DNA from: Candidatus Eiseniibacteriota bacterium
GTDB taxonomy: Bacteria > Eisenbacteria > RBG-16-71-46
DNA length: 64,000 bases
Reading direction: 5' to 3'
Assembly (NCBI GenBank): GCA_016215625.1
Contig: JACRIW010000020.1
Span: forward strand, 71,013-135,012
The notes under the pieces were generated by a model. It was not told the DNA's origin. It was given only the letters and a program-made list of their open reading frames with translations, and made no database searches. The position numbers and the translations under genes are program-made. Positions 3,115-64,000 of the stretch are shown here, in pieces (position 1 is the stretch's first letter; each line of letters opens with the position of its first letter).

Positions 3115-4794
3115 ATGACCATGAAGCGCAAGTCCTCCCTCGGTCCACTCGTCGTGGCGATGTCGCTCTCGGTGCTGCTCGGCTTCGGCCTCGCGCGCGC
3201 GCTGCGTGCCGGTGACGACCTGCGCAGCAACCTCGACCTGTTCAACAACGTGCTGTACCTCGTGCAGCAGAACTACGTCGAGTCGCCGGACAACGAGAAG
3301 CTCATCAAGGGCGCGATCGACGGCATGCTCAAGACGCTCGACCCGCACTCGGTGTTCCTGCCGGAGAAGCGCGCCCAGCAGATGGACGAGCAGTTCCACG
3401 GCGAGTACTCGGGCATCGGCGTGCAGTTCGACATCCAGGACAACAAGATCGTCGTGATCTCGCCGCTCGAGGGCACGCCGGCGTACCGGCTCGGCATCCG
3501 CGCCGGCGACAAGATCGTCGAGATCGACGGCAAGCCGCTCAAGAAAGGCATCAACAACGACGACGTCTTCAAGCTGCTCCGCGGCCCGACGGGGTCCACC
3601 GTCATGGTCACGATCGAGCGCGAGACGGAGCCGGAGCACATGCACTTCACGATCGAGCGCGCGAAGATCCCGATCGAGAGCATCCCGTACGCGTACATGA
3701 TCCGGCCGGGCGTCGGCTACGTGCGCGTCATCCGGTTCGCGCAGACGACCGGCGACGAGCTCGAGGCGGCCATCGCGAAGCTGCGCGGCCAGGGCATGAA
3801 GAGCCTGCTCATCGACCTGCGCTCGAACTCCGGCGGCCTGCTCTCGCAGGCGGTGGACGTGCTCGACCAGGTGATCCCGGACAATCGCCGCCTTGTGTAC
3901 ACGCGCGGCCGCATCACGTCGTCGAACGCCGACTACTACTCGACCAGCCGGCCGGGCAAGTGGACCGACGGCCCGATCGTCGTGCTCGTGGACCACGGCA
4001 GCGCGTCGGCGAGCGAGATCGTGTCGGGCGCGGTGCAGGATCTCGACCGCGGTCTCGTGGTGGGCATCAACACGTTTGGCAAGGGCCTCGTGCAGAACCA
4101 GATGAACCTGTCCCAGGGCAAGCTGCTGCTCACGATCGCGCGCTACTACACGCCGAGCGGCCGCGGCATCCAGCGCGACTACACGAAGTTCGGTGACCAG
4201 TCCGAGTACCAGGAGGACGCGTACCGCGAGGACGTGCCGTCGGACTCGGCGCTGCAGGCCCGTCCGAAGTTCAAGACGTCCACCGGCCGCATCGTGTACG
4301 GCGGCGGCGGCATCTATCCCGACGTCGTGATCAAGGACCCGCCGAACCTCACGCGCCCCGAGATCGAGTTCATCACGAAGCGCGTCGGCTTCGAGTTCGC
4401 GACGCACTACGTGACGAAGCACCCGAACACGAAGTGGACGCCGGAGACGTTCGACCCGCGCTTCACGCTGACGCCGGACGAGTGGAAGAACCTGCGCCAG
4501 ATCGTGGACAACAAGAAGATCGTCATGAACGACTCGGTCTGGACCGCGGAGAAGCCCTTCATCCTCCGCCAGGTGCGCGCCGAGCTGGCGAGCGCCACGC
4601 TCGGTTCGCTCGAGCGCTACCGCATCGCGGTCGAGGACGATCCGCAGCTGAACGCCGCGCTGGACCTGTTCCCGCGCGCGCAGCAGCTGCTCGCGACGGC
4701 CGCGGGACGGCGCTCGGAGCCCGGTCCGGTGGACGGCTCGCCGCCGGCCGACCCGCGCAAGGCGTCGCTCGACGGCAAGGAACGCAAGAAGTAA
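3115..4794 (+). CDS. ctpA: carboxyl-terminal processing protease, S41A family with PDZ domain
   Basis: LDPHS, GIG PDZ motif, DLRSNSGG, SASASEI and TFGKG motifs. Confidence 0.92.
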   Translation: MTMKRKSSLGPLVVAMSLSVLLGFGLARALRAGDDLRSNLDLFNNVLYLVQQNYVESPDNEKLIKGAIDGMLKTLDPHSVFLPEKRAQQMDEQFHGEYSGIGVQFDIQDNKIVVISPLEGTPAYRLGIRAGDKIVEIDGKPLKKGINNDDVFKLLRGPTGSTVMVTIERETEPEHMHFTIERAKIPIESIPYAYMIRPGVGYVRVIRFAQTTGDELEAAIAKLRGQGMKSLLIDLRSNSGGLLSQAVDVLDQVIPDNRRLVYTRGRITSSNADYYSTSRPGKWTDGPIVVLVDHGSASASEIVSGAVQDLDRGLVVGINTFGKGLVQNQMNLSQGKLLLTIARYYTPSGRGIQRDYTKFGDQSEYQEDAYREDVPSDSALQARPKFKTSTGRIVYGGGGIYPDVVIKDPPNLTRPEIEFITKRVGFEFATHYVTKHPNTKWTPETFDPRFTLTPDEWKNLRQIVDNKKIVMNDSVWTAEKPFILRQVRAELASATLGSLERYRIAVEDDPQLNAALDLFPRAQQLLATAAGRRSEPGPVDGSPPADPRKASLDGKERKK

Positions 4795-50665: not shown

Positions 50666-52170
<1,505 letters not shown>

Positions 52171-52171
<1 letters not shown>

Positions 52172-53568
52172 TGCTCTTCGAGCCGCTGACGGCCCTGCGC
52201 TGCATCGCCTGCGGCGCCGAGCCGGACGCTCGCGACCCGTATCCGTTCCGGTGTCCCCACGCCGGGAGCGGGGACGGTCGCGAGCACCTGCTCACGAGCT
52301 CGCCCGACATGACGCGCGCGCGGTTCGCGCTCGGCACGTCGGGCCAGCCGTTCGTGCGCCATCGCGAACTGCTCCACTCGTACACGCGCGCGCGCACGCT
52401 CGGCATGAGCGACGCGGCGTTCGTGGACATGGTCGAGGAGCTCGACGCGAAGGTCGCGGCGGTGGAGGGGCACGGCTTCGCGCAGACGCCGCTCGCTCCG
52501 AGCGAGGCGCTCGCGAAGTCCACGCGCCTGACCGAGGGCGAAGTCTGGGTGAAGAACGAGACGAGCAACGTCGCGGGCTCGCACAAGGCGCGGCACCTGT
52601 TCGCGCTCGCGCTGCACCTCGAGGTGAGCGAGCGCACGGGACTCACGACGCGCGAGGAGACGAACCGGCGCGGTCTCGCGATCGCCTCGTGCGGCAATGC
52701 CGCGCTGGCGGCCGCGGTCGTCGCGCGCGCCACGGAGCGCCCGCTCGAAGTCTTCATCCCCCCGGACGCCGACCCGCGCGTGGTCGAGCGGCTCCGCGCG
52801 CTCGGCGCCACGATCGGCGTGTGCGTGCGGCAGGAGGGCGTGAGCGGTGACCCGTGCGTGCGCGCGTTCCACGCGGCGCTCGCCAAGGGCGCGCTGCCCT
52901 TCTGCGTGCAGGGCAACGAGAACGGTCTGAACGTCGAAGGCGGCGCCACGATCGGCTGGGAACTGGCCTCGCAGCTCGCCAGTTCGGGCGGCCGCGTCGA
53001 CCGCGTGTTCATGCAGGTGGGCGGTGGCGCGCTCGCGAGCGGCGTGATCCAGGGGCTGCGCCACGCGCGCGAACAGGGCGTGATCGAAGCGCTCCCCAAG
53101 CTGCACACCGTGCAGACGCGCGGCTGCTGGCCGCTGCGCCGGGCGTACGAGCGCCTGCGTGAGCGCGCGCTGCCGGGCGCGCACGGCGACGACCCGACGT
53201 TCGCGGTGCGCCTGCGCGCGCCGAACCACGCGGGGGACGTCCGCACCGCGCTGCTGCACGCGCTCGACCAGCGCGCGCGGTACATGTGGGCGTGGGAGCT
53301 GGCGCCGCACTCGATCGCGCACGGCATCCTCGACGACGAGACGTACGACTGGTTCGCGATCGTCGAGGGCATGCTCGAATCCGGCGGCTGGCCGGTGGTG
53401 GTGGACGAGGCGCTGCTCGCCGAGGCGCGCGACATGGCGCAGGCGGCGGGCGTGAGGGCGGACGCGACGGGCGCGGCCTCGCTCGCCGGGCTGCTCGCGC
53501 TGCGGCGCGTGCGCTGGCTCGGCGTGGACGAGCGCGTCGTCGTGCTGCTGACCGGCGTCCAGCGCTGA
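52171..53568 (+). CDS. threonine synthase-like PLP enzyme with N-terminal Zn ribbon
   Basis: CIAC...CP, TPL, VKNETSNVAGSHKAR, ASCGNA, QVGGGAL and LLTG motifs; TGATG coupling. Confidence 0.8.
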
Positions 53569-53644
53569 CCACCGCGACACCGGCGGCGCCGCAGGCGCGG
53601 CTCCGAGCTTGGGGGCCGCGCCGCCGTGCTGTTACGGTGGCGGC

Positions 53645-55297
53645 ATGACGCGTTCTTCGTGGCAGGCACCGCTCCTGTGGCTGGCCGCATTCGCCGGGCT
53701 GGCCGTCTTCGCCGTGCAAGTCTCGCGCGAACTGCTCGCGACCTCCGTGTGGGACGACGCGTGGATGTTCGTGCGCTACGCCGAGCAACTGCTCGCCACC
53801 GGCGTGCCGGCGTTCGCGCCCGGCGGGCACGGCGTGTACGGGCTGACGTCGCCCGCCTACCTCACGGTGGTCGCGCCGCTGCGGGCGCTGCTCGGGCCGG
53901 AACCCGTGCGGGTCGCGCTGCTCTCGAGCCTCTTCTGCGGCGTGCTGTTCCTCGGATTCCTCTCGCGCATGGTCGTGCGCCTCACGGACGGCTCGCCGCG
54001 GCGCCGGGCGGCGACGTTCGCACTCGTGGGCTTCACGCTCGCGTACGCCGCGCCCGCGCTCGCGCGCCACTTCGCGAGCGGCATGGACACGACGTTCGCG
54101 CTCGCGTACTTCACCGTGTGGATCATGCTCGCGCACGCGTGCTCGCGCTACGTGGCGGACGAGGCCACGTGGACGCTCGGCGCGTTCGGCGGCATGGCGT
54201 TCAGCGTGCGGCCCGACCTGCTCGTGTTCACGGTCGGCGTGCCCGCGCTCTGCGCCGTGTTCGCGACGCACTGGCGCACGCGCAACAGCCAGGCCGCCGC
54301 GGCGTTCTTCACGCTGTTCGTCGCGCTGCTGCAGTCGGCGGTGTACGCGTGGTGGCTGCACTCGCCGCTGCCGTTGCCGTTCTTCGCCAAGACGTTCGGC
54401 TTCTACGGCCCGACGCTGCGCGCCGCGTACGACGGCGTCGCGATCGCCGAGGTGAGCGGCTTCCTGCGCGCGATGTCCGCGCTGCGCGCCGTGTTCGCCG
54501 CGGCCGTCGTGCTGCACCCGATCCGCTGGTGGAACGCGGCGAGCCCGCTCGAGAAGGCGCTGTTCTTCACCGGCCTCGTCTTCACCGCGTACCACGCCTT
54601 CGCGGTCGTGCCGATCATGGGCTACGCGGGGCGTTTCGAGATGCCGCTCTTCCCGGTGCTCGTCTACCTCGCGGCGCGCTCGCTCGCGCACCTCGCCACG
54701 TGGTACCCGCAGGCCGTGTGGCGCTCGCTCGTCGTGACGCTCCTGGCGCTCGCGGTCGCGGGCGTCCTCGTTCGGCGCATCGTCGCGCACCAGATCGCTC
54801 CCGAGCCGCCGCGCCTGGCCGCCGCGGAACGCTTCGACCTGCACGCCGCCTGGCGCGAGAACGGCCGGAACTACTGGGTCGCGCTCGACCGAGTCTCGCG
54901 GCTGCCGGACGACCTCGTCATCGCGACCACGGAAGTCGGCATGCCGCTCGTGCTGTCGCCGGAGCGGCGCATCATCGACCTCGCGGGACTCAACGAGACG
55001 AGCATGATGCGCCACCACGTGAGCGCGGACAGCGTCGTGCGCCGCGAGCGGCCGGACCTCGTGTACCTGCCGCATCCGCACTACGCGGAGATGCGCGACG
55101 CGCTGCTCGCCGACCCGGTGTTCGAGCGCGACTACGAGATCTGGCCTGCGGCCTCGCTGCGCGCCGACATGGGAGTCGCGGTGCGGCGCGACGGCCCGTA
55201 CGCCGACTCGTTGCGCGCGCTGTTCGCCGCCCGCGCGGCCGAGACCGCGGCGCGAGCCGTGCCGGCCACGCCTGCGGCACAAACGCCCGGGCACTGA
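53645..55297 (+). CDS. polytopic membrane protein, GT-C-like glycosyltransferase
   Basis: WDDAWMFVRYA, G.TSP, SGMDT, RPD and IIDLAGLN motifs; many TM helices. Confidence 0.65.
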   Translation: MTRSSWQAPLLWLAAFAGLAVFAVQVSRELLATSVWDDAWMFVRYAEQLLATGVPAFAPGGHGVYGLTSPAYLTVVAPLRALLGPEPVRVALLSSLFCGVLFLGFLSRMVVRLTDGSPRRRAATFALVGFTLAYAAPALARHFASGMDTTFALAYFTVWIMLAHACSRYVADEATWTLGAFGGMAFSVRPDLLVFTVGVPALCAVFATHWRTRNSQAAAAFFTLFVALLQSAVYAWWLHSPLPLPFFAKTFGFYGPTLRAAYDGVAIAEVSGFLRAMSALRAVFAAAVVLHPIRWWNAASPLEKALFFTGLVFTAYHAFAVVPIMGYAGRFEMPLFPVLVYLAARSLAHLATWYPQAVWRSLVVTLLALAVAGVLVRRIVAHQIAPEPPRLAAAERFDLHAAWRENGRNYWVALDRVSRLPDDLVIATTEVGMPLVLSPERRIIDLAGLNETSMMRHHVSADSVVRRERPDLVYLPHPHYAEMRDALLADPVFERDYEIWPAASLRADMGVAVRRDGPYADSLRALFAARAAETAARAVPATPAAQTPGH

Positions 55298-55393
55298 ACG
55301 GGCCGGAGGCCCGGAGCTCTGGAATCCCCCGCTTCCGGCTTTTCAAGTCCCGCCCCGACCGCGTACCTTCCCGGCTTCGTCCGGAGGACACCC

Positions 55394-56218
55394 ATGTTCA
55401 GCAAGCTGTTCGGCAAGAAGAAGCCGGAAACTCCCGCGACTCCGCCGCCGCCCCCGCGGCAGGTGCCGCTCTATGCCGCGCTGCTCGAGAAGCCCTCGCG
55501 CGACGTGCCGCAGAACCTGAAGACGAACGAGGAGAGTCCCGAGTTCGCGCAGTGGCAGGCCAAGTGGCAGGAAAAGCTGCGTGGGCAGAAGCGCCCCGCG
55601 GACGACCAGCCGGTGCTCACCACGCTCGCCTCGGGCGACCACATGGCGACGTTCGCGATGCCCGACGAGGGCGGGCGCGCGGCGCTGTTCTTCAGCTCGC
55701 CGCTGCGCGCCGCGGACTACAAGGACCACATGGGGGCCGAGAGCGCCGGGGCGCAGATCCCGATGCTGCCGCTCGCGGGGTTCGTGCAGATGCTGCGTGA
55801 CCTCGAGAGCGCGGGCGTGACGCACTTCGCGTTCGACCGCTGCCCGCGCTGCGTCGGCGCCACGGTGGCCGAGGCCGCCGGCGTCCAGACGGTCGAGGAC
55901 GCGTGGGCGGTGCGCTCGCAGTACAAGGGTGCCGAGGTCGCGCGCGAGAAGCTCTACTTCGAGTACGCGCTCGACGCCGCGCGCACCGGGCACCTCGAGG
56001 AGGCGCGCGAGGTCGCGCTGCAGGCCGTGTCGCACATCACGATCGAGGACCCGAACATGCACCTGCTGATCGGGCAGATCGGCGTCGCGCTCGCGGACAC
56101 GCAGCTGCACCAGGACGCCGCCGCGATGCTGCAGTTCCTCAAGGCCGATCCGTACGTCGCCAAGCTGCACACGGTCGTCGAGATCGGCGCCGCCGACTTC
56201 GAGGGTCCGGACGCCTGA
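55394..56218 (+). CDS. hypothetical protein
   Basis: GGAGG RBS, coding-like codon bias, CPRC motif, helical C-terminus. Confidence 0.7.
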   Translation: MFSKLFGKKKPETPATPPPPPRQVPLYAALLEKPSRDVPQNLKTNEESPEFAQWQAKWQEKLRGQKRPADDQPVLTTLASGDHMATFAMPDEGGRAALFFSSPLRAADYKDHMGAESAGAQIPMLPLAGFVQMLRDLESAGVTHFAFDRCPRCVGATVAEAAGVQTVEDAWAVRSQYKGAEVAREKLYFEYALDAARTGHLEEAREVALQAVSHITIEDPNMHLLIGQIGVALADTQLHQDAAAMLQFLKADPYVAKLHTVVEIGAADFEGPDA

Positions 56219-56236
56219 GCGGCGAGGCGGGAGCAC

Positions 56237-56272
56237 GAAGGCGGCCGGGGCGTGAGCGCTCCGGCCGCCTTC
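56237..56272. terminator. bidirectional hairpin terminator
   Basis: GAAGGCGGCCGGGGCG / CGCTCCGGCCGCCTTC stem between convergent genes. Confidence 0.7.
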
Positions 56273-56288
56273 TCTTCGTGGCGCGCGT

Positions 56289-56906
56289 CTAGTGCTGCGC
56301 GGGGGCCTCGCTCGCGGCGGTCGTGTCCGCCGCCGCGGGCGCTTCCGCCGCAGCGGCCGCCGCGGCCGCGGCTTCGCTCGAGACCCGGCCGAGGTTCGCG
56401 AGCCCTTCGGTGAAGTCCTTTCCGACCATCGCGTCCATGTCCATGAACACGCACATCACCTTGGACATGAAGTCGTAGTCGCCCGACATGGACCACTCGA
56501 CCTTCGTGCCTTCGCCCTCGGGCGCGAGCGCGAGCGTGGTCATGGCGGTCGAGGCGAACGGCTTGAGGAACTCCAACTTCATCACGACCTTCTGGTCCGG
56601 CGCCGCCTCGGTGATCGTCATGCGGCCGGAGCCCGCGTCCTTGTTGCCTTCCCACTCGTAGACCGCACCGACGCCCGATTCGGCGCCGCTGAACTGGGTC
56701 CGCATGGCGGGGTCGAGCTTCTGCCACGGCGACCACGACGGGAAGCGGTGCATGTCCGCGATCTGCGCGTACACCGCCGCCGGCGGCGCCGGAAGCGTCG
56801 CGCTGCGGGTGATGGTGTAGTGGTCCGGTTTCGTGGCGGCGAGCCCGAGCACCGCGAGCACGGCGACGCCGACGAGGGCGAGCACGCCCAGCAGGATCTT
56901 CTTCAT
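56289..56906 (-). CDS. SRPBCC (polyketide cyclase/dehydrase-like) protein
   Basis: N-terminal TM helix, WSPW..LDP, GAVYEWEGN, FLKPF and GKDFTEGLANL motifs. Confidence 0.85.
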   Translation of the reverse strand: MKKILLGVLALVGVAVLAVLGLAATKPDHYTITRSATLPAPPAAVYAQIADMHRFPSWSPWQKLDPAMRTQFSGAESGVGAVYEWEGNKDAGSGRMTITEAAPDQKVVMKLEFLKPFASTAMTTLALAPEGEGTKVEWSMSGDYDFMSKVMCVFMDMDAMVGKDFTEGLANLGRVSSEAAAAAAAAAEAPAAADTTAASEAPAQH

Positions 56907-57094
56907 GGCGATGGCCTCCATGGGAAGGGGTAGGGGCGGGACGCTAGCCCGTCCCCGGGTTCGCGCGCCAGCGCTCGCGCGACGAACGCGGGCAATAAGG
57001 TGGCCCGGCGCTCGCCCGTGCGCTTTGCCGTTGACCCGCACGGGCCGTCCGCGCCAGTTTTTGCGCCGGAGCCCATCCACCCCCGGAGGTCCGC

Positions 57095-57706
57095 ATGCCC
57101 TCGACCGATCCCCGCGTCGACGCCTACATCGCGAAGTCCGCGCCCTTCGCCCGTCCCATTCTCGAAGAGCTGCGTGCGCGCGTCCACGCCGCCTGCCCGA
57201 ACGTGGAAGAGACGATCAAGTGGGGCTTCCCGAACTTCGTCCACGAGGGCGCGCTGCTGTGCAGCATGGCCGCCTTCAAGCAGCACTGCACGTTCGGATT
57301 CTGGAAGGGGAAGCTCCTGCGCGCGGCCGGGCTGAAGGTGTCCGACGAGGCGATGGGGCAGATGGGACGGCTCGAGTCCGTGAAGGACCTGCCGGGCAAG
57401 GCCGAGTTCCGGCGGCTCGTGAAGGCGGCCATGACGCTCAACGAGGGGCCGACCCGCGTCGCGCGTCCGGTCACGAAGCCGGGTACGCGCAAGCCGATCC
57501 CGGTGCCCGCGGACCTGAAGGCCGCGCTCGCCCGGAACGCCCGGGCGCGCGGGACGTTCGAGTCGTTCGCCCCGAGCCACCGCCGCGAGTACCTCGAGTG
57601 GATCACCGAGGCGAAGCGCCCCGAGACGCGCGCGAAGCGACTCGCGCAGACGATCGAGTGGCTGGCCGAGGGCAAGCGTCGCAACTGGAAGTACGAGGGC
57701 TGCTGA
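57095..57706 (+). CDS. YdeI/OmpD-associated family protein (DUF1801)
   Basis: DPRVDAYI, ETIKWGFP and EYLEWITEAKRPETR motifs. Confidence 0.88.
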   Translation: MPSTDPRVDAYIAKSAPFARPILEELRARVHAACPNVEETIKWGFPNFVHEGALLCSMAAFKQHCTFGFWKGKLLRAAGLKVSDEAMGQMGRLESVKDLPGKAEFRRLVKAAMTLNEGPTRVARPVTKPGTRKPIPVPADLKAALARNARARGTFESFAPSHRREYLEWITEAKRPETRAKRLAQTIEWLAEGKRRNWKYEGC

Positions 57707-57802
57707 CACGCACGGCGGCGGGCCTGCGGCCGGACGCGGTGCTACAGTGAGGCGTGAGCGTGTTGGGCGCTCGAGCGATCCCTCCGCGCGAGGCCCCCAC
57801 GC

Positions 57803-58381
57803 ATGCCCATCACCCGACGCACTTTCCTTGCCCGCACGGCGCTCGTCGCCGGCGCCTTTGCCGCGTGGGGACTGAGCGGCGAGCGGCTGCGCTGGCTCGT
57901 CTCGGGCGCGCTCGCGCCCGCGCCCGTGGGACCGCTGCGCGAGTCGGCCGCCGAAGTGCTGCGCCTGACGGTCGTGGCGCTGCTCGACGCCCGCGTCGAG
58001 ACGGGGCACTACGTGGCGCGTTTCCGCTGGCGCGCCGAGCACGTGAGCGGCGCGCGCGCGCTGTACGAGCGCTTCGAGCGCGCGATGGACCGCGCGGCGC
58101 GCGCGGCGGGCGAGACGAGCTTCCGCGCCGCACGGCCCGAGACGCGCCGCCGGCTGCTCGAAGCCGTGCGCCTCGAAGGGGGCGCCACGCGCGTGCGCCG
58201 CACGCTGCTCGACCGCGACGCGTTGCGCTTCGCGCGCTGGGTCACGCGCGACGTGTTCGAGTGCTTCGCCGCGACCGACGCGTGGGTGCTCGCGGGCTAC
58301 GACGCCTGGCCGGGCATGCCGCGAGCGATCGCGCGCGTCGCGAAGCCGGCGAAGCCGGACGGCCCGGGAGGCGCCTCGTGA
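57803..58381 (+). CDS. Tat-exported small subunit, gluconate 2-dehydrogenase subunit 3-like
   Basis: ITRRTFL Tat motif, C-terminal AWVLAGY..WPG, directly upstream of the GMC gene. Confidence 0.65.
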   Translation: MPITRRTFLARTALVAGAFAAWGLSGERLRWLVSGALAPAPVGPLRESAAEVLRLTVVALLDARVETGHYVARFRWRAEHVSGARALYERFERAMDRAARAAGETSFRAARPETRRRLLEAVRLEGGATRVRRTLLDRDALRFARWVTRDVFECFAATDAWVLAGYDAWPGMPRAIARVAKPAKPDGPGGAS

Positions 58382-59955
58382 GCGCGAGCCGCATCGCCAT
58401 CGTCGGCTCGGGCATGATGGGCGCCACGCTCGCGTACGAACTCACGCGCGCAGGCTGCGAAGTGGACGTGTTCGAGCGCGGCCCGGACTACGCCTACCCG
58501 CACCGGCAGCGCTTCGTCGAGACCATCGAAAATGGCTGGGACGATCCCGCGCGCGCCGTGGCGCCCGACCTGCGGCGTTTCACGAGCACGGGCAGCTACG
58601 CGCGCGAGCTGTGGCGCGAGGCCGTCGTGCGCGAGGGCGGCAGCGGCACCGCCTGGACCGGGCTCGCCACGCGCATGTCGCCGACCGACCACGAGACGCG
58701 CTCGCGCTACGGCTTCGGCGAGGACTGGCCGCTCTCGTACGCCGAACTCGAGCCGTGGCTCTGCCGCGCCGAGGCGCAGCTCGGGGTCTCGGGCACCGAC
58801 GACGACAACCCGTGGGCGCCGCCGCGCTCGCAGCCGTATCCGCTGCCGCCGTTCGAACTGACCCCCGACGACGTGCTCGTCGCCGAGCGTCTCGCCGCCG
58901 GCGGCATCCACGTGCACTCGACCCCGCAGGCGCGCACGCGCGCGGACTACGAGGGGCGGCCCGCCTGCATGAACATCGGCGAATGCCAGGTGTGCCCGAC
59001 GGGAGCGCGGTACTCGTCCACGCACCACCTGGCCCTCGCGCGCGCGACCGGGCGGTGCCGCGTGACGACCGGGGCGAGCGTGCGTCGCGTGCTCACGGAC
59101 GCCGCCGGGCGCGCGCGCGGCGTGCGGTGGCGACGCGAGGGTGAGGACCGCGACCGCGAGCACGAGGCCGACCTCGTGATCGTCGCGGGGGCCGCGTTCG
59201 AGAGCGCGCGGTTGCTGCTGCTCTCGCGCGACGCGAAGCATCCGGACGGCCTCGGGAACACGCACGGCCACGTCGGGCGCCATCTCGTCTTCCACCACAT
59301 CTGGGTCGGGCACGTGCACTTCGAGGAGCCCGTCCACGCGGGCCGCGTCGGCTTCTGGACCGCGCAGAGCGACCAGTTCGTGGACCCGCCGACGCGCGGC
59401 CGCCACGGCGGGGTGAAGATCGAGCTGCCGTCCAAGCCCGCTCCGGAGCACATGCGCGCGGCCGGCCGGGCACGCTCGTTCGAGGAAGCGATGCGCGCCT
59501 TCGACGTCGTGCGCCGCTGCCGCACGGTGGGCATGCACGCGGAGTCGGACACGGGGGACGGCAAGTACGTGGCGCTCGCCCGCGAGCGCGACCGCTTCGG
59601 CGATCCGGTCGCGCACGTGCACTACGACTCGAGCGCGTTCGACCGCGCGACCCACGCGTACGCGCGCGAGCTGTTCGATCGCGTGGCCGCGGCGCTGCGC
59701 GTGCGCGAGCGTGTGTTCCCCGGGCTCGAGGAGTTCGGGACGTTCGCGCACCACATGGGCACGCACCGCATGAGCGCGCGTCCCGAGGACGGCGTCGTGG
59801 ACACGTACGGCGCGGTGCACGACACGCCGGGCCTGCACGCGATCGGGCTCGGCATGTTCGCGGGCTGCGGCGGCGCCGTGAATCCGACGCTCACCGGCGT
59901 CGCGCTGGCGATCCGCGCCGCCGACGCGATCGCGCGCGGCGCGGGCCGCGCATGA
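58378..59955 (+). CDS. GMC-family FAD oxidoreductase
   Basis: IVGSGMMG, GGSGTAW, DWPLSYAELEP, CMNIGECQVCP, HHMGTHRM and NPTLT motifs. Confidence 0.88.
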   Translation: MSASRIAIVGSGMMGATLAYELTRAGCEVDVFERGPDYAYPHRQRFVETIENGWDDPARAVAPDLRRFTSTGSYARELWREAVVREGGSGTAWTGLATRMSPTDHETRSRYGFGEDWPLSYAELEPWLCRAEAQLGVSGTDDDNPWAPPRSQPYPLPPFELTPDDVLVAERLAAGGIHVHSTPQARTRADYEGRPACMNIGECQVCPTGARYSSTHHLALARATGRCRVTTGASVRRVLTDAAGRARGVRWRREGEDRDREHEADLVIVAGAAFESARLLLLSRDAKHPDGLGNTHGHVGRHLVFHHIWVGHVHFEEPVHAGRVGFWTAQSDQFVDPPTRGRHGGVKIELPSKPAPEHMRAAGRARSFEEAMRAFDVVRRCRTVGMHAESDTGDGKYVALARERDRFGDPVAHVHYDSSAFDRATHAYARELFDRVAAALRVRERVFPGLEEFGTFAHHMGTHRMSARPEDGVVDTYGAVHDTPGLHAIGLGMFAGCGGAVNPTLTGVALAIRAADAIARGAGRA

Positions 59956-62900
59956 GCGCCGGACGGGTGGCTCGGAGCGCTCCCCTCGTCGCGTCGCTCG
60001 CGGCATGGCTCGTGGCCGCGTCGCCGCCCGGTGACGGCTTCGCGGCCACACCCGCGGCGTTCGCGCCGCCGGCGCGCGCCGACTATCGGCTCGAAGTCGA
60101 GATCCCGGCGTTCGAAGCGCACGAGAGCGCACGCTGCCTCGTGTGCCACGACGTGCCGGGTTTCGTGGTCCGCGACAGCGTGGGAGGGGCCGCGCGAGTC
60201 CTGACCGTGCCCGGGCAGGCGTTCGGGCGCAGCGTGCACGCGCGTCTCGCCTGCACGCAGTGTCACGCCGAGATCCGGCGCTACCCGCACGGCACGATCG
60301 CGCCGGCGTCGCGCGCGCGTTGCGACGGCGACTGCCATGCCGCCGACTCCACCGGCCGCGCGGTCACGCACGCCGCGGCGGCGCGCGCGCTCGCGGCGAG
60401 CGTGCACGGGGCCGCGCCGCACGGCCCCGCTTCGGACCTGCCGGCGTGCACGTCGTGCCACGGCGGGAACGCGCACGTCGTGGGCACCGCGCCCGCACGG
60501 TCCGACCGCGCGGCGCGGCTCGCCGCGTGCGCGCCCTGCCACGCCGACGGCGAACGCATGCGTGCGCACGACGTCGAGCCGGGGGCCGTGCCGTCGTACG
60601 AGCGCAGCTTCCACTTCAAGGCGCTCGAACTGGGCTCGACCCGCGCCGCCGTCTGCACGGACTGCCACGGCGCACACGACGTGCGCGCCGTGCGAGACAC
60701 GCTCGCGCGCACGCACGCGAGGCAGCTGCCCGCCACGTGCGGCCAGGACGGCTGCCACCGGGGCGCGAAGCTCGCCTTCGCGGCCTCCGGCGCCAATCAC
60801 CTCGACCTGCGCGTCGCCCGTCATCCGGTGCTCGCGCTCGTGCGCACGCTGTTCCACGCGTTCGGCGCGCTCGTGCTCGCCGTGCTCGGCGTCGGCGTGG
60901 CGCTCGACGCGCTCCGGCGAGCGCGGGACCGTCGCGTCCCTCGTTCGCCCGCGCGAGCGGACGACGCGCTGCTCGTGCCGCGGCTCACGCTCGCGCAGCG
61001 CCTGCAGCACGGCGCGCTCGTGCTCGCGTTCCTCGTGCTCGCCCTGAGCGGCGCCGCCGTGCACTTCGCGCACACCGTGCCCGCGCAGGCGTTCGCCGCC
61101 GCGGTCGGAGGCCGTGCGGTGATCCGCGCGCTGCATCGCGGCGCCGCCGCGCTCCTCGTCGCCACGGCGCTCGCGCACGCGGCCTCCGCGCTGGGGCTGC
61201 TCGCGCGCGCGAGGTTCGCGCCCGCGCGCGCTTGGCCGATGTTGCCCACGGCGCGCGACGCGCGCGACTGGTGGGCGCTCTCGCTGTGGTATTTCGGCCT
61301 GCGCGGAACGCCGCCGGAGTTCGACCGCCACGAGTTCCGGCAGAAGCTGCACTACTTCCTCGTGCTGGCCGGCGTGCCCGTGATGACCGCGACCGGGCTG
61401 ATGCTCGCGTTCCCGGTGTTCTTCGGGAACCTCCTGCCCGACACGGCCTACGGCATCGCCCACCTCGTGCACGGCACCGAGGCGAGCCTCGCGATCGCGA
61501 TCTTCGTGCTGTGGCACCTCTGGCAGCTGCGCGTCACGCCGGGACCGCACGCGCGGCTGCTCACCGCCTGGGACGGCCGCATCACGCGCGCGCAGTGGCG
61601 CGAACAGCACGCCGCCGAGGCGGCGCGCGTGGGCGAGCCCCCCGTGGCGGCGCCGGAACCTTTCGATCCCTGGGCGGCCCGCGTGCGGCTGGCGCTGCCG
61701 CTGGTGCTCGCGCTCGCGGTCCTGCTGCGTGTGCGGGAGGCGGTGCGCACGCCACTGTGGTTCGACGAGCTGTTCACGCTGCACATGGCGAAGCTCGACC
61801 TGCCGCATACGCTCGCGCTCCTGCCGAACGACGTCCACCCGCCGCTTCCGACGCTGCTCGTCTCGCTGTGGGTCGCCGTCGGCGGGACCGCTCCGCTCTG
61901 GCTCAAGAGCCTGCCGCTGCTGCTCGGCGTGCTCGCGCTGCTCGCCACCTACGGTTTCGCGCGAAGCCTGTTCGGGCGGCCGGTCGCCCTGCTCGCGACG
62001 CTGCTGCTCGCGCTGCACCCCGCGCACGTCTATTTCTCGCAGGAGCTGCGCGGCTACGGCCTGCTCACGCTCGCGCTGCTCGCGGCGGCGTGGTCGGCGT
62101 GGGCGTGGCTGCGCACCGGTCGCGCGCGCTTCGCCGGGGGCTGGGTGCTCGCCGCGGCGCTCGCCGCGTGGACGCACTACCTGAGCGCGGTCGTGCTCGC
62201 GCTGCTCTCGCTCGCCATGCTCGCCGCTTCGCGCACGCGCGGGCGCCGGCTCGCCTGGCTGGCCGTCCATGCGGCCATCGCGCTGCTCGTCGCGCCGCTG
62301 CTGGCGCTGCTGCCCGGTCAGCTCGCGCTGTCGCACGAGACCTGGGTGCCGCAACCCGCCGGCGCCGATCTGCTCGACCTCGCGCGCAAGGTGGCCTTCG
62401 GGGCGCTCTACCTGGTGCCGGTGCTCTTCGGTCTGGCGATCGTCCCACTCGTGCGCGGGGAGCGGCGTGGCGCGGCGCGCTTCGCGTGGGGCATGGCGAC
62501 CGGCGCGATCGTGCTCACGTTCGCGCTCTCGCTGCGCGGTCCGCACCTGTTCGCCGCGCGCTACATGTACTTCACGCTGCCGTACTGGTGCGTGCTGTTC
62601 GCCGCGGGGCTGGTGGCGCTGCCGTGGCGGCGCGTGCGCGCCGGAGCGATCGTGCTGGTCGCGCTGTTCGCGCTGCGCTCGGCGATCCTGCGCCCGCCGC
62701 TCGCCGAGGCCGTGGACCTGCAGCGCGCGATCGCGACCGTCCGGGGCGCGGTGCGTCCGGGCGACCTCGTCTTCGCCGCCGATCCGCACAGCCTGCTCGT
62801 ACTCGACGAGGCGCGGGCGTTGCCCACCGCGCGGCTGCTTTCGGACCTGGAGAAGCTGCCGTACTTCCGCGGCGGCGCGATCCTCGCGCGGGAACGCATC

Positions 62901-63098
62901 GTGCCGCTCGACACGCTGCGCGCCGTGGCGGCGGGCCGGCGCTGGTGGGTGGTCCACACGCCCGAGCCCGGCCGGCCCGGGGCCGCCGTGGCGGCGCTGT
63001 GCGACTCGCTGGCGGCGCCGCGCCGGCAGGTGGTCGGCATGGTGACGATCTGGCGCGGCGGGCCGGTATCAGGTGCGGGCCCGGCGCCACCTTTCTGA
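59952..63098 (+). CDS. fusion: multiheme cytochrome c + cytochrome b (FdnI-like) + GT-C (GT39/PMT-like) glycosyltransferase
   Basis: Five CxxCH plus CDGDCH and CGQDGCH; QRLQH, LHR, LVHGTEA and WHLW cytochrome b histidines; LWFDE, DVHPPL and YFSQELRGY. Confidence 0.8.
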   Translation: MSAGRVARSAPLVASLAAWLVAASPPGDGFAATPAAFAPPARADYRLEVEIPAFEAHESARCLVCHDVPGFVVRDSVGGAARVLTVPGQAFGRSVHARLACTQCHAEIRRYPHGTIAPASRARCDGDCHAADSTGRAVTHAAAARALAASVHGAAPHGPASDLPACTSCHGGNAHVVGTAPARSDRAARLAACAPCHADGERMRAHDVEPGAVPSYERSFHFKALELGSTRAAVCTDCHGAHDVRAVRDTLARTHARQLPATCGQDGCHRGAKLAFAASGANHLDLRVARHPVLALVRTLFHAFGALVLAVLGVGVALDALRRARDRRVPRSPARADDALLVPRLTLAQRLQHGALVLAFLVLALSGAAVHFAHTVPAQAFAAAVGGRAVIRALHRGAAALLVATALAHAASALGLLARARFAPARAWPMLPTARDARDWWALSLWYFGLRGTPPEFDRHEFRQKLHYFLVLAGVPVMTATGLMLAFPVFFGNLLPDTAYGIAHLVHGTEASLAIAIFVLWHLWQLRVTPGPHARLLTAWDGRITRAQWREQHAAEAARVGEPPVAAPEPFDPWAARVRLALPLVLALAVLLRVREAVRTPLWFDELFTLHMAKLDLPHTLALLPNDVHPPLPTLLVSLWVAVGGTAPLWLKSLPLLLGVLALLATYGFARSLFGRPVALLATLLLALHPAHVYFSQELRGYGLLTLALLAAAWSAWAWLRTGRARFAGGWVLAAALAAWTHYLSAVVLALLSLAMLAASRTRGRRLAWLAVHAAIALLVAPLLALLPGQLALSHETWVPQPAGADLLDLARKVAFGALYLVPVLFGLAIVPLVRGERRGAARFAWGMATGAIVLTFALSLRGPHLFAARYMYFTLPYWCVLFAAGLVALPWRRVRAGAIVLVALFALRSAILRPPLAEAVDLQRAIATVRGAVRPGDLVFAADPHSLLVLDEARALPTARLLSDLEKLPYFRGGAILARERIVPLDTLRAVAAGRRWWVVHTPEPGRPGAAVAALCDSLAAPRRQVVGMVTIWRGGPVSGAGPAPPF

Positions 63099-63174
63099 GC
63101 GTCAGGCGCCACCGCGCCCGGCCCCGTCCGAGCCCCCCACGGTCGCGGCCGTCACATCCACCTCGGACCGGTCC

Positions 63175-64000
63175 ATGATGCGCCGCGATTTCGCCGCCAC
63201 CCTCCGCGCCGCGGGGCTCGCCGCCCTGTGCGCCGTCTCGTCGTTGTCCTTCGCCGTCCCGGCCCGCGCGGGCGCTTCCTGGGTGCCCGGCGAAGTGATC
63301 GTGAAGTACCGCGCCGGGGCCACGCGCGCGCGCCGGGCACTCGTGCGCAACGTGCTCCCGTCGGTCGAACGCGTGGACGGGCTCGAACTCATCGGAGCCG
63401 AGTGCGTACGGTTCACCGGCATGGCCGTCGAGGAGGCGTGCGCGACGCTCGCCGCGGATCCCGCGGTCGAGTACGCGCAGCCCAACCACGTGTTCACCGT
63501 GGACGTCGTGCCGAACGACCCGTCGTTCGCCTCGCTGTGGGCGATGAAGAACACCGGGCAGGGCGGCGCCTTCGCGGGCGACGACCTCGACGCGACGCTC
63601 GCCTGGGACCTGTGCACGGGCGACCCGGAGATGAAGATCGGAGTGGTCGACTCGGGCATCGACTACACCCATCCGGACCTCGCCGCGAACATCTGGACCA
63701 ATCCCGGCGAGATTCCGGGCAACCAGATCGACGACGACGGAAACGGCTACGTGGACGACGTTCACGGCTACGACTTCGTGAACGGCGACGGCGACCCGAT
63801 GGACGACTACAAGCACGGCACGCACGTCGCGGGCACGATCGGCGCCGTCGGCCACAACGGCATCGGCGTGACCGGCGTGTGCTGGCGGTGCAGGCTCGTC
63901 GCGATCAAGTTCGTCAATGCGACCGGCTCGGGCACGGAGTCCGCCGCGGTGCAGGCGCTGCAGTACGCGCTCACGGTCGGCGTGCGGCTCACGAACAACT
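63175..64000 (+). CDS. S8 subtilisin-like serine protease (partial, runs off right edge)
   Basis: Manual translation: signal peptide, VPGEVIVKY, EYAQPN, VVDSGIDYTHPDL and HGTHVAGTIGA. Confidence 0.9.
   Translation, partial: MMRRDFAATLRAAGLAALCAVSSLSFAVPARAGASWVPGEVIVKYRAGATRARRALVRNVLPSVERVDGLELIGAECVRFTGMAVEEACATLAADPAVEYAQPNHVFTVDVVPNDPSFASLWAMKNTGQGGAFAGDDLDATLAWDLCTGDPEMKIGVVDSGIDYTHPDLAANIWTNPGEIPGNQIDDDGNGYVDDVHGYDFVNGDGDPMDDYKHGTHVAGTIGAVGHNGIGVTGVCWRCRLVAIKFVNATGSGTESAAVQALQYALTVGVRLTNN

Follow-up and report, generated by a model that had tools for sequence, protein, structure and literature searches.

A GMC-family dehydrogenase operon of Eisenbacteria encodes a multiheme cytochrome fused to a predicted GT-C glycosyltransferase

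We analysed a 64,000-nucleotide stretch of DNA, hereafter the window (genome G000, contig C106, positions 71013-135012; G+C ~75%), from an uncultured soil and groundwater bacterium of the Eisenbacteria, a phylum that to our knowledge has no cultured members. The subject of this report is a plus-strand operon of three genes. The first (57803-58381) encodes a small subunit of 192 residues, the second (58378-59955, GTG start) a flavoprotein of 525 residues belonging to the GMC family, and the third (59952-63098, stop codon included) a protein of 1048 residues in which a multiheme cytochrome c, a cytochrome b and a GT-C glycosyltransferase domain follow one another in one open reading frame (ORF). 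Direct reading placed a GTGA overlap between genes 1 and 2 (58378-58381) and an ATGA overlap between genes 2 and 3 (59952-59955), and G+C at third codon positions (GC3) was 0.93-0.95 for all three genes, each in its own frame. Three genes coupled by such overlaps had been proposed in an initial annotation made from the letters of this DNA, and the ORFs bear this out.

The N-terminal part of the third protein is a periplasmic heme domain (59952-60806, plus strand, residues 1-285), in which a Sec-type signal (~1-31) precedes seven heme-c motifs: five CxxCH motifs at residues 62, 101, 166, 193 and 235, a CxxxCH at 124 and a CxxxxCH at 263. All seven were kept in 8/8 full-length relatives, and the Pfam models for cytochromes c7 and c3 scored slightly below their cut-offs. 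It is followed by a cytochrome b part (60822-61526, plus strand, residues 291-525) made up of one transmembrane helix and a four-helix di-heme b of the HydC/FdnI type. This part matched Pfam Ni_hydr_CYTB at residues 346-523 (E 3.7e-9, 37.0 bits, cut-off 30.1) and, below cut-off, the NCBIfam formate dehydrogenase gamma model (E 1.4e-6). Six of its histidines (H353, H395, H409, H467, H507 and H522) were invariant in 9/9 proteins compared, and it is presumed to be the quinone site. The initial annotation had counted about seven heme-c motifs and a His-ligated cytochrome b module; the module was upheld by the Pfam match and the invariant histidines, and the motif count stood, although only five of the seven are canonical CxxCH. 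A search of PDB sequences with the whole fusion protein gave no match at E up to 1.

At least two further proteins combining multiheme c and cytochrome b are encoded elsewhere in the same genome, on contigs C10 (~80.7-85.1 kb) and C58 (~0.6-3.1 kb), with 25-32% identity to the N-terminal half of the fusion protein, so that the organism may have a family of such quinone-linked conduits.

The fusion junction (61527-61667, plus strand, residues 526-572) consists of the cytoplasmic tail of cytochrome b and a Pro-rich linker, GEPPVAAPEPFDP, which is present as first quoted. Five hydrophobic segments lie between the periplasmic heme domain and the linker, and these five membrane passes place the linker in the cytoplasm. 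GT-C enzymes require their acidic loop on the periplasmic side, and known members have the catalytic base in the first periplasmic loop. The fusion protein follows this arrangement: from the cytoplasmic linker, the first GT-C helix (573-599) leads to the motif WFDELF (603-608) in the periplasm, with D605/E606 located 4-7 residues past the helix. The GT-C membrane domain occupies 61668-62690 on the plus strand (residues 573-913) and includes HPPL at 629 and SQELRGY at 696 as well as a Pfam PMT_2 match at 629-784 (E 2.8e-6, 28.1 bits, cut-off 26.1). The domain ends in a small alpha/beta periplasmic domain (62691-63098, plus strand, residues 914-1048 and the stop codon), delimited from the secondary structure of a model.

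That model, built with AlphaFold2 for residues 567-1048 from 32 homologues, had a mean predicted local distance difference test score of 92.5. In a Foldseek search its best matches were the ArnT structures 5ezm and 5f15 (E 8e-8, template modelling score 0.62-0.64), followed by ALG9, STT3, ALG12 and AftB; the 33 matches listed with E ≤ 0.001 were all GT-C enzymes. Sequence identity to solved GT-C enzymes was 12-18%, and a profile search of PDB sequences yielded a weak match to STT3A (E 0.004). The predicted fold is therefore that of an ArnT-like glycosyltransferase, and the motif positions, the PMT_2 match and the model agree with the complete-looking GT-C module, marked by these motifs, of the initial annotation. 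A complex prediction pairing the cytochrome b part (285-570) with the GT-C part (571-1048) scored 0.00, which carries no weight either way.

A PMT_2 score barely above the cut-off (28.1 vs 26.1 bits) and the lack of donor-synthesis genes nearby would fit a domain that no longer transfers sugar and instead helps the cytochrome by anchoring it in the membrane, by scaffolding its assembly or by binding isoprenoid lipids. We consider this very unlikely, as the modelled fold is that of a complete GT-C enzyme, and D605, E606, D627, H629, E698, R700, H742 and E919 were invariant in 9/9 fusion proteins. Among 33 fused and free-standing homologues, E606, D627 and E919 remained invariant and D605 was present in at least 90%. 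The domain was also conserved as well as the cytochrome parts, or better, in six of eight relatives, and nothing in these comparisons suggests decay.

Relatives with 46-47% identity in the cytochrome half hold two genes in different frames at the junction, as would be expected if a stop or frameshift at ~61600-61700 of the window had been missed in assembly or gene calling. The evidence makes such an artefact extremely improbable. Codon bias is carried by one frame through the junction, with GC3 at 0.93-0.94 across 61500-61800. An independently built Logan contig of 2657 nucleotides from run X1 (possibly the source sample of this assembly) covers 61187-62600 with one difference and no gaps, and short contigs match 61425-61714 (run X3) and 61501-61651 (run X4, from a different study) without differences. 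In this comparison, short 'joints' with 20-23-base sides were ignored, as they resemble cross-matches of GC-rich metagenome contigs. A word-indexed protein search found nine clusters (P0003-P0011; P0008 is a 771-residue fragment) of the same length and order at 46-100% identity in NCBI, JGI and Logan assemblies; eight proteins besides that of the window share the architecture (46-82% identity). In an exhaustive search of 1.84 billion representatives, three among the best 150 spanned both halves. A whole-genome search, in which G026 was counted in the denominators and gave no match, returned in-frame, stop-free matches in genomes G008 (81% identity, residues 3-1047) and G014 (60%, residues 31-1041).

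The one-frame codon bias, the independent contig across the junction and the eight relatives confirm that the fusion is a true in-frame protein and not an assembly artefact. The single ORF that was first noticed in the window is thus found in several independent assemblies, and where the initial annotation had called for read support, the junction is covered by gap-free contigs. That annotation had also named two findings that would refute it: reads or close relatives in which a stop and a restart interrupt the junction, or occurrence of the fusion in this assembly alone. The latter is not the case, since G008, G014 and a further six metagenome proteins have the two parts in frame. A stop and restart does exist in the relatives at 46-47% identity, and the closer ones (81% and 60%) are in frame; it reflects a naturally occurring form of this operon, with two GTGA-coupled genes, and not an error in the window.

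This two-gene form was found in three assemblies. L044, a locus from a family-alignment scan of metagenome contigs, carries consecutive genes for the small subunit, the GMC flavoprotein, the cytochrome c/b and the GT-C protein, the last two in different frames: the cytochrome gene ends at TGA 4024-4026, and the GT-C gene starts with GTG at 4023. The genomes G146 and G147, which represent another genus than the window, have the same GTGA overlap, whereas the in-frame fusions of G000, G008 and G014 fall within one genus. These genomes were identified by scanning 206 species genomes of the phylum (E ≤ 1e-95), a scan that scored three candidates per genome and can miss weaker copies. In G023 the operon is present and the contig end falls inside the cytochrome gene. 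In all three split assemblies the GT-C is a fourth gene whose GTG overlaps the cytochrome TGA at the junction site, which makes the GT-C a true member of the operon. Agreement among these three independent assemblies speaks against sequencing error at their junctions. The neighbourhood comparison proposed at the outset therefore recovered the GT-C as a coupled fourth gene.

We then placed the GT-C sequences of verified context in a phylogenetic tree. The three adjacent forms made up one clade (Shimodaira-Hasegawa-like approximate likelihood ratio test, 100), sister to the fused P0011 (99), and the other seven fused forms made up a separate clade (97). In approximately unbiased (AU) tests, in which the groups were chosen once earlier trees had been seen, so that the p-values are indicative only, a single clade of all linked forms, fused and adjacent, was not rejected (p 0.29), and a single clade of fused forms was rejected (p 0.002). 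The rejection implies that fusion or fission happened at least twice. The simplest history would be that one GT-C orthologue was recruited once to the end of the operon and that the locus then switched between the overlapping and the single-gene state at least twice. A first AU test rejecting the fused clade (p 1e-56) was replaced, as it had been driven by P0016, a sequence of 487 residues on a 2230-nucleotide contig whose context was not visible. For P0013, P0015-P0020 and similar proteins, the gene context is known only where their loci were retrieved. A tree of the cytochrome half, which predates the recognition of P0014 as the split-adjacent protein of G146, did not resolve the order of events.

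The GMC flavoprotein matched Pfam GMC_oxred_N and GMC_oxred_C. It has no signal peptide, and an FAD-binding GxGxxG begins at residue 9. A phmmer search of the PDB showed full-length homology, over residues 5-519, to the Gluconobacter fructose dehydrogenase (FDH) subunit FdhL (7w2j_A, E 1.1e-46) and to the alpha subunit of the FAD-dependent glucose dehydrogenase (FAD-GDH) of Burkholderia cepacia (BcGDH; 6a2u_B, E 6.9e-46). At E ~1e-46 to both, the layout of a membrane-bound sugar dehydrogenase that had been recognised from the gene order is well founded. Residue roles were mapped from BcGDH alpha as described in PMC6719666. The 3Fe-4S ligands Cys212/Cys218/Cys222 given there correspond to C197/C203/C206, which are putative ligands here, and the catalytic pair His476/Asn519 corresponds to H458/N502. 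Conservation of these cysteines and of the His/Asn pair suggests that the flavoprotein looks active and able to pass electrons to a heme partner. According to the same source, His105 forms the covalent FAD link, Cys213 an inter-subunit disulfide, and Asn474/Asn475 recognise glucose; the corresponding residues here are Ala92, Met198 and Phe456/Ala457. The known enzymes therefore give no guide to its substrate.

The small subunit begins MPITRRTFLA and thus carries a twin-arginine signal (TRRTFLA), whose R5 and R6 were nearly invariant among 27 homologues. A homologue lies upstream of the GMC gene in all relatives' operons examined. Its family was harder to place. No Pfam model matched the subunit itself at E up to 10, and PF13618 was found in 2/27 homologues with a weak best E of 0.035. 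Searches of the PDB by sequence and by profile, as well as Foldseek, came back empty. VIA-align ranked the gamma subunit of BcGDH at 2-3 of 48161 chains (Z 4.2-4.3), tied with unrelated helical proteins, and UniRef names one homologue (56% identity) 'Gluconate 2-dehydrogenase subunit 3 family protein'. The gene order matches the twin-arginine translocation (Tat) 'hitchhiker' arrangement of the class, but the sequence and fold comparisons do not establish homology. The small subunit is likely such a hitchhiker, taking the signal-less flavoprotein to the periplasm.

Taken together, the locus probably encodes a flavoprotein dehydrogenase complex of the FDH/FAD-GDH class that is bound to the membrane and faces the periplasm, with an unusual electron-transfer subunit and with the glycosyltransferase as a fourth component. 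Judging from the families involved, the small subunit would carry the folded flavoprotein through the Tat system, and the flavoprotein would oxidise a sugar-type hydroxyl in the periplasm. From FAD, electrons would reach the 3Fe-4S cluster and then run through the seven c hemes and the two b hemes to quinone; this direction is assumed by analogy with the dehydrogenase class. The GT-C would transfer a glycosyl group from a polyprenyl-phosphate donor. That electrons reach quinone, and that oxidation is chemically coupled to glycosyl transfer at all, are inferences. With some reserve, we favour the view that oxidation and glycosyl transfer serve one process, for which an envelope-glycan pathway is the likeliest candidate. 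Within it, we only tentatively suggest that the flavoprotein acts directly on the lipid-linked donor or the glycosylated product of the GT-C. In this version, which we regard as somewhat doubtful, the GMC protein may oxidise either the sugar of a polyprenyl-phosphate donor while it is bound to the GT-C or a sugar that has only just been transferred, and send the electrons along a nine-heme wire to quinone.

The alternative is co-expression without shared chemistry, in which an ordinary envelope or protein GT-C happens to be last in the operon. Such an enzyme may glycosylate a co-required target or the complex's own subunits, having no substrate in common with the dehydrogenase. The junction itself lends this some support. 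A frame change at the GTGA overlap is all that separates the fused from the split form, and at a 4-base overlap a single-base change can fuse the GT-C harmlessly to the preceding membrane protein, so fusion is mechanically easy. Both termini are cytoplasmic, which makes the fusion topologically neutral. In addition, the modules are separate in many relatives, and an orthologous GT-C occupies an unrelated locus in G010. However, the link, fused or adjacent, persists at identities as low as 45-48% in two genera and in several lineages from metagenomes, and it outlasted at least two changes of the gene boundary. The operon is also tied to a particular orthologue: the free-standing GT-C paralogue of the window genome (contig C70, 41% identity) falls in another clade. 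On balance, co-expression alone seems unlikely, although well within the range of serious alternatives.

Several observations nevertheless weigh against a dehydrogenase complex with the glycosyltransferase as its partner in one process. The operon contains no gene for a polyprenyl-phosphate sugar synthase, nor any other glycan gene. G010, G017 and G115 have the small subunit, GMC and cytochrome c/b genes with no GT-C alongside; in G010, a member of the window's genus, the orthologous GT-C is on another contig, beside a phosphodiester glycosidase gene. None of six full-length free-standing GT-Cs of the linked subclade (L045-L050) had dehydrogenase genes in its flanks, of which ~360 to 7000 bases were available upstream. 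Second copies of the small subunit and GMC genes in G006, G017 and G010 (L039, L040 and L041, respectively; 55-61% identity) have no adjacent cytochrome gene, nor does a KSB1 relative (50% identity). Conversely, G104 and G105 encode the cytochrome c/b with no GMC genes within ~5 kb. To these points are added the substitution of the covalent-FAD histidine and of the sugar-recognising Asn-Asn in the flavoprotein, as mapped from PMC6719666, membership of the small subunit in the Gluconate_2-dh3/gamma family that is not established, and trees that came from quick searches.

With three relatives lacking an adjacent GT-C and free-standing GT-Cs found away from the operon, the link between dehydrogenase and GT-C is facultative, not obligatory. 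None of the three GT-Cs examined in G017 fell in the linked subclade. The cytochrome c/b is likewise a movable electron-transfer module. As the modules are found separately in relatives, each can evidently work alone.

Some of these loci have neighbours of their own. The free-standing GT-C orthologue of G010 (L017, 6728-9192) comes directly after the gene for a secreted phosphodiester glycosidase of the NAGPA family on the same strand, and the opposite strand carries a fused alcohol-dehydrogenase/Gfo-Idh-MocA oxidoreductase and a GT4 glycosyltransferase. No recurring neighbour of free-standing GT-Cs was found. The cytochrome c/b orthologues of G104 and G105 (L126 and L127; 43-46% identity, ~580 residues) have neither GMC nor small-subunit genes with them and stand next to a gene for a GNAT-type acetyltransferase. 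In G006 and G010 the second GMC copy is adjoined, on the opposite strand, by a gene for a membrane protein of ~630 residues with C-terminal TPR repeats; these proteins gave TPR matches only, and according to the atlas their family is specific to Eisenbacteria.

In the window, the three-gene operon stands alone in its surroundings. Upstream lie a minus-strand gene (~56289-56920) and a gene of the YdeI/OmdA family (57095-57706). An Rfam search of 52000-64000 gave no match, and a promoter and terminator scan was uninformative. Further upstream, 53609-55297 on the plus strand encodes a multi-pass membrane protein of 562 residues that belongs to no Pfam family. It gave a sub-threshold match (E 5.8e-4) to the NCBIfam model 'LA_3751/LA_3752 putative glycosyltransferase', and two of its 30 atlas look-alikes fell in a cluster in which 13% of members carry PMT_2. 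This protein is encoded upstream of the operon in G014 too; in the window the minus-strand gene intervenes. The idea that GMC loci repeatedly adjoin other GT-C-like membrane proteins was not supported, and hhalign against a GT-C profile was negative for all three candidate membrane proteins beside GMC loci. Downstream is a secreted, subtilisin-like peptidase of the S8 family (63170-64000, continuing to ~65112 of the contig). Its C-terminal domain (~80 residues, ...GVYFVRL...VVVLR) recurs on several secreted proteins further down the contig and looks like a tag for sorting or anchoring in this phylum.

The significance of the locus lies in a respiratory electron conduit that is covalently joined or translationally coupled to a GT-C glycosyltransferase. 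Its parts are all of known families, and their combination has not been described previously: a full-text literature search found no GT-C joined to a cytochrome and no GMC dehydrogenase tied to a lipid-linked glycosyltransferase, in agreement with the first impression that no such fusion was on record. Source annotations of the fusion proteins read 'glycosyltransferase family 39 protein' or 'cytochrome b subunit of formate dehydrogenase'. When two proteins occur both fused and as neighbouring coupled genes, this is one of the better signs in genomes that they work together, and the interest comes chiefly from the two forms jointly giving a specific, testable prediction. They thereby offer a concrete, testable way into redox chemistry that Eisenbacteria may carry out in the periplasm, on sugars that are lipid-linked or belong to the envelope. 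If oxidation and transfer are directly coupled, envelope glycosylation would be wired straight to respiration, which is undescribed for any GT-C enzyme. If co-expression is all that links them, the operon would still be a clean natural case of repeated fusion or fission at a 4-base overlap.

Compared with known systems, the operon is closest in layout to FDH (FdhSCL) and to the gamma-alpha-beta FAD-GDH of B. cepacia. As in these enzymes, a gene for a small subunit with a Tat signal lies beside that for a signal-less GMC protein. The catalytic subunits are homologous over their full length, and the 3Fe-4S cysteines and the His/Asn pair, as identified in PMC6719666, are kept. Unlike them, the operon has a cytochrome c with seven heme motifs fused to a di-heme b in place of the tri-heme cytochrome c, and a GT-C that is attached or adjacent. 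In the flavoprotein, Ala replaces the histidine and Phe-Ala the Asn-Asn to which that paper assigns covalent FAD binding and substrate recognition, respectively, and sequence comparison does not demonstrate homology of the small subunits. 'Direct electron transfer' dehydrogenases of the FDH/FAD-GDH type are of interest for biosensors, and the present operon indicates that a CbcL-like c/b cytochrome can take the place of their tri-heme subunit.

CbcL of Geobacter sulfurreducens, as presented in PMC9129911, is an inner-membrane cytochrome in which one polypeptide holds a multiheme c domain in the periplasm and a di-heme b domain in the membrane that communicates with the quinone pool; it works as a quinol oxidase. 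The likeness to the fusion protein lies in domain make-up: both combine a multiheme c with a di-heme b of the HydC/FdnI type. CbcL has nine c hemes, compared with seven motifs here. The fusion protein further differs in its GT-C domain and in its setting; since it belongs to a dehydrogenase operon, electrons probably run towards quinone and not from quinol outwards.

The GT-C itself resembles ArnT and other PMT_2-type enzymes (GT83, GT39) in predicted fold, in the PMT_2 match and in the acidic pair of the first periplasmic loop, and differs from ArnT and the other solved GT-Cs in sequence, with an identity as low as that given above. We know of no characterised GT-C that shares a polypeptide or an operon with a respiratory cytochrome. 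An analogy is offered by DprE1 of mycobacteria. Although DprE1 is not a GMC protein, has no cytochrome partner and is not fused to transferases, and although the present system has no DprE2-like reductase, it is a flavoenzyme that oxidises a polyprenyl-phosphate sugar outside the cytoplasm, delivers the electrons to the quinone pool and yields a product that feeds GT-C arabinosyltransferases.

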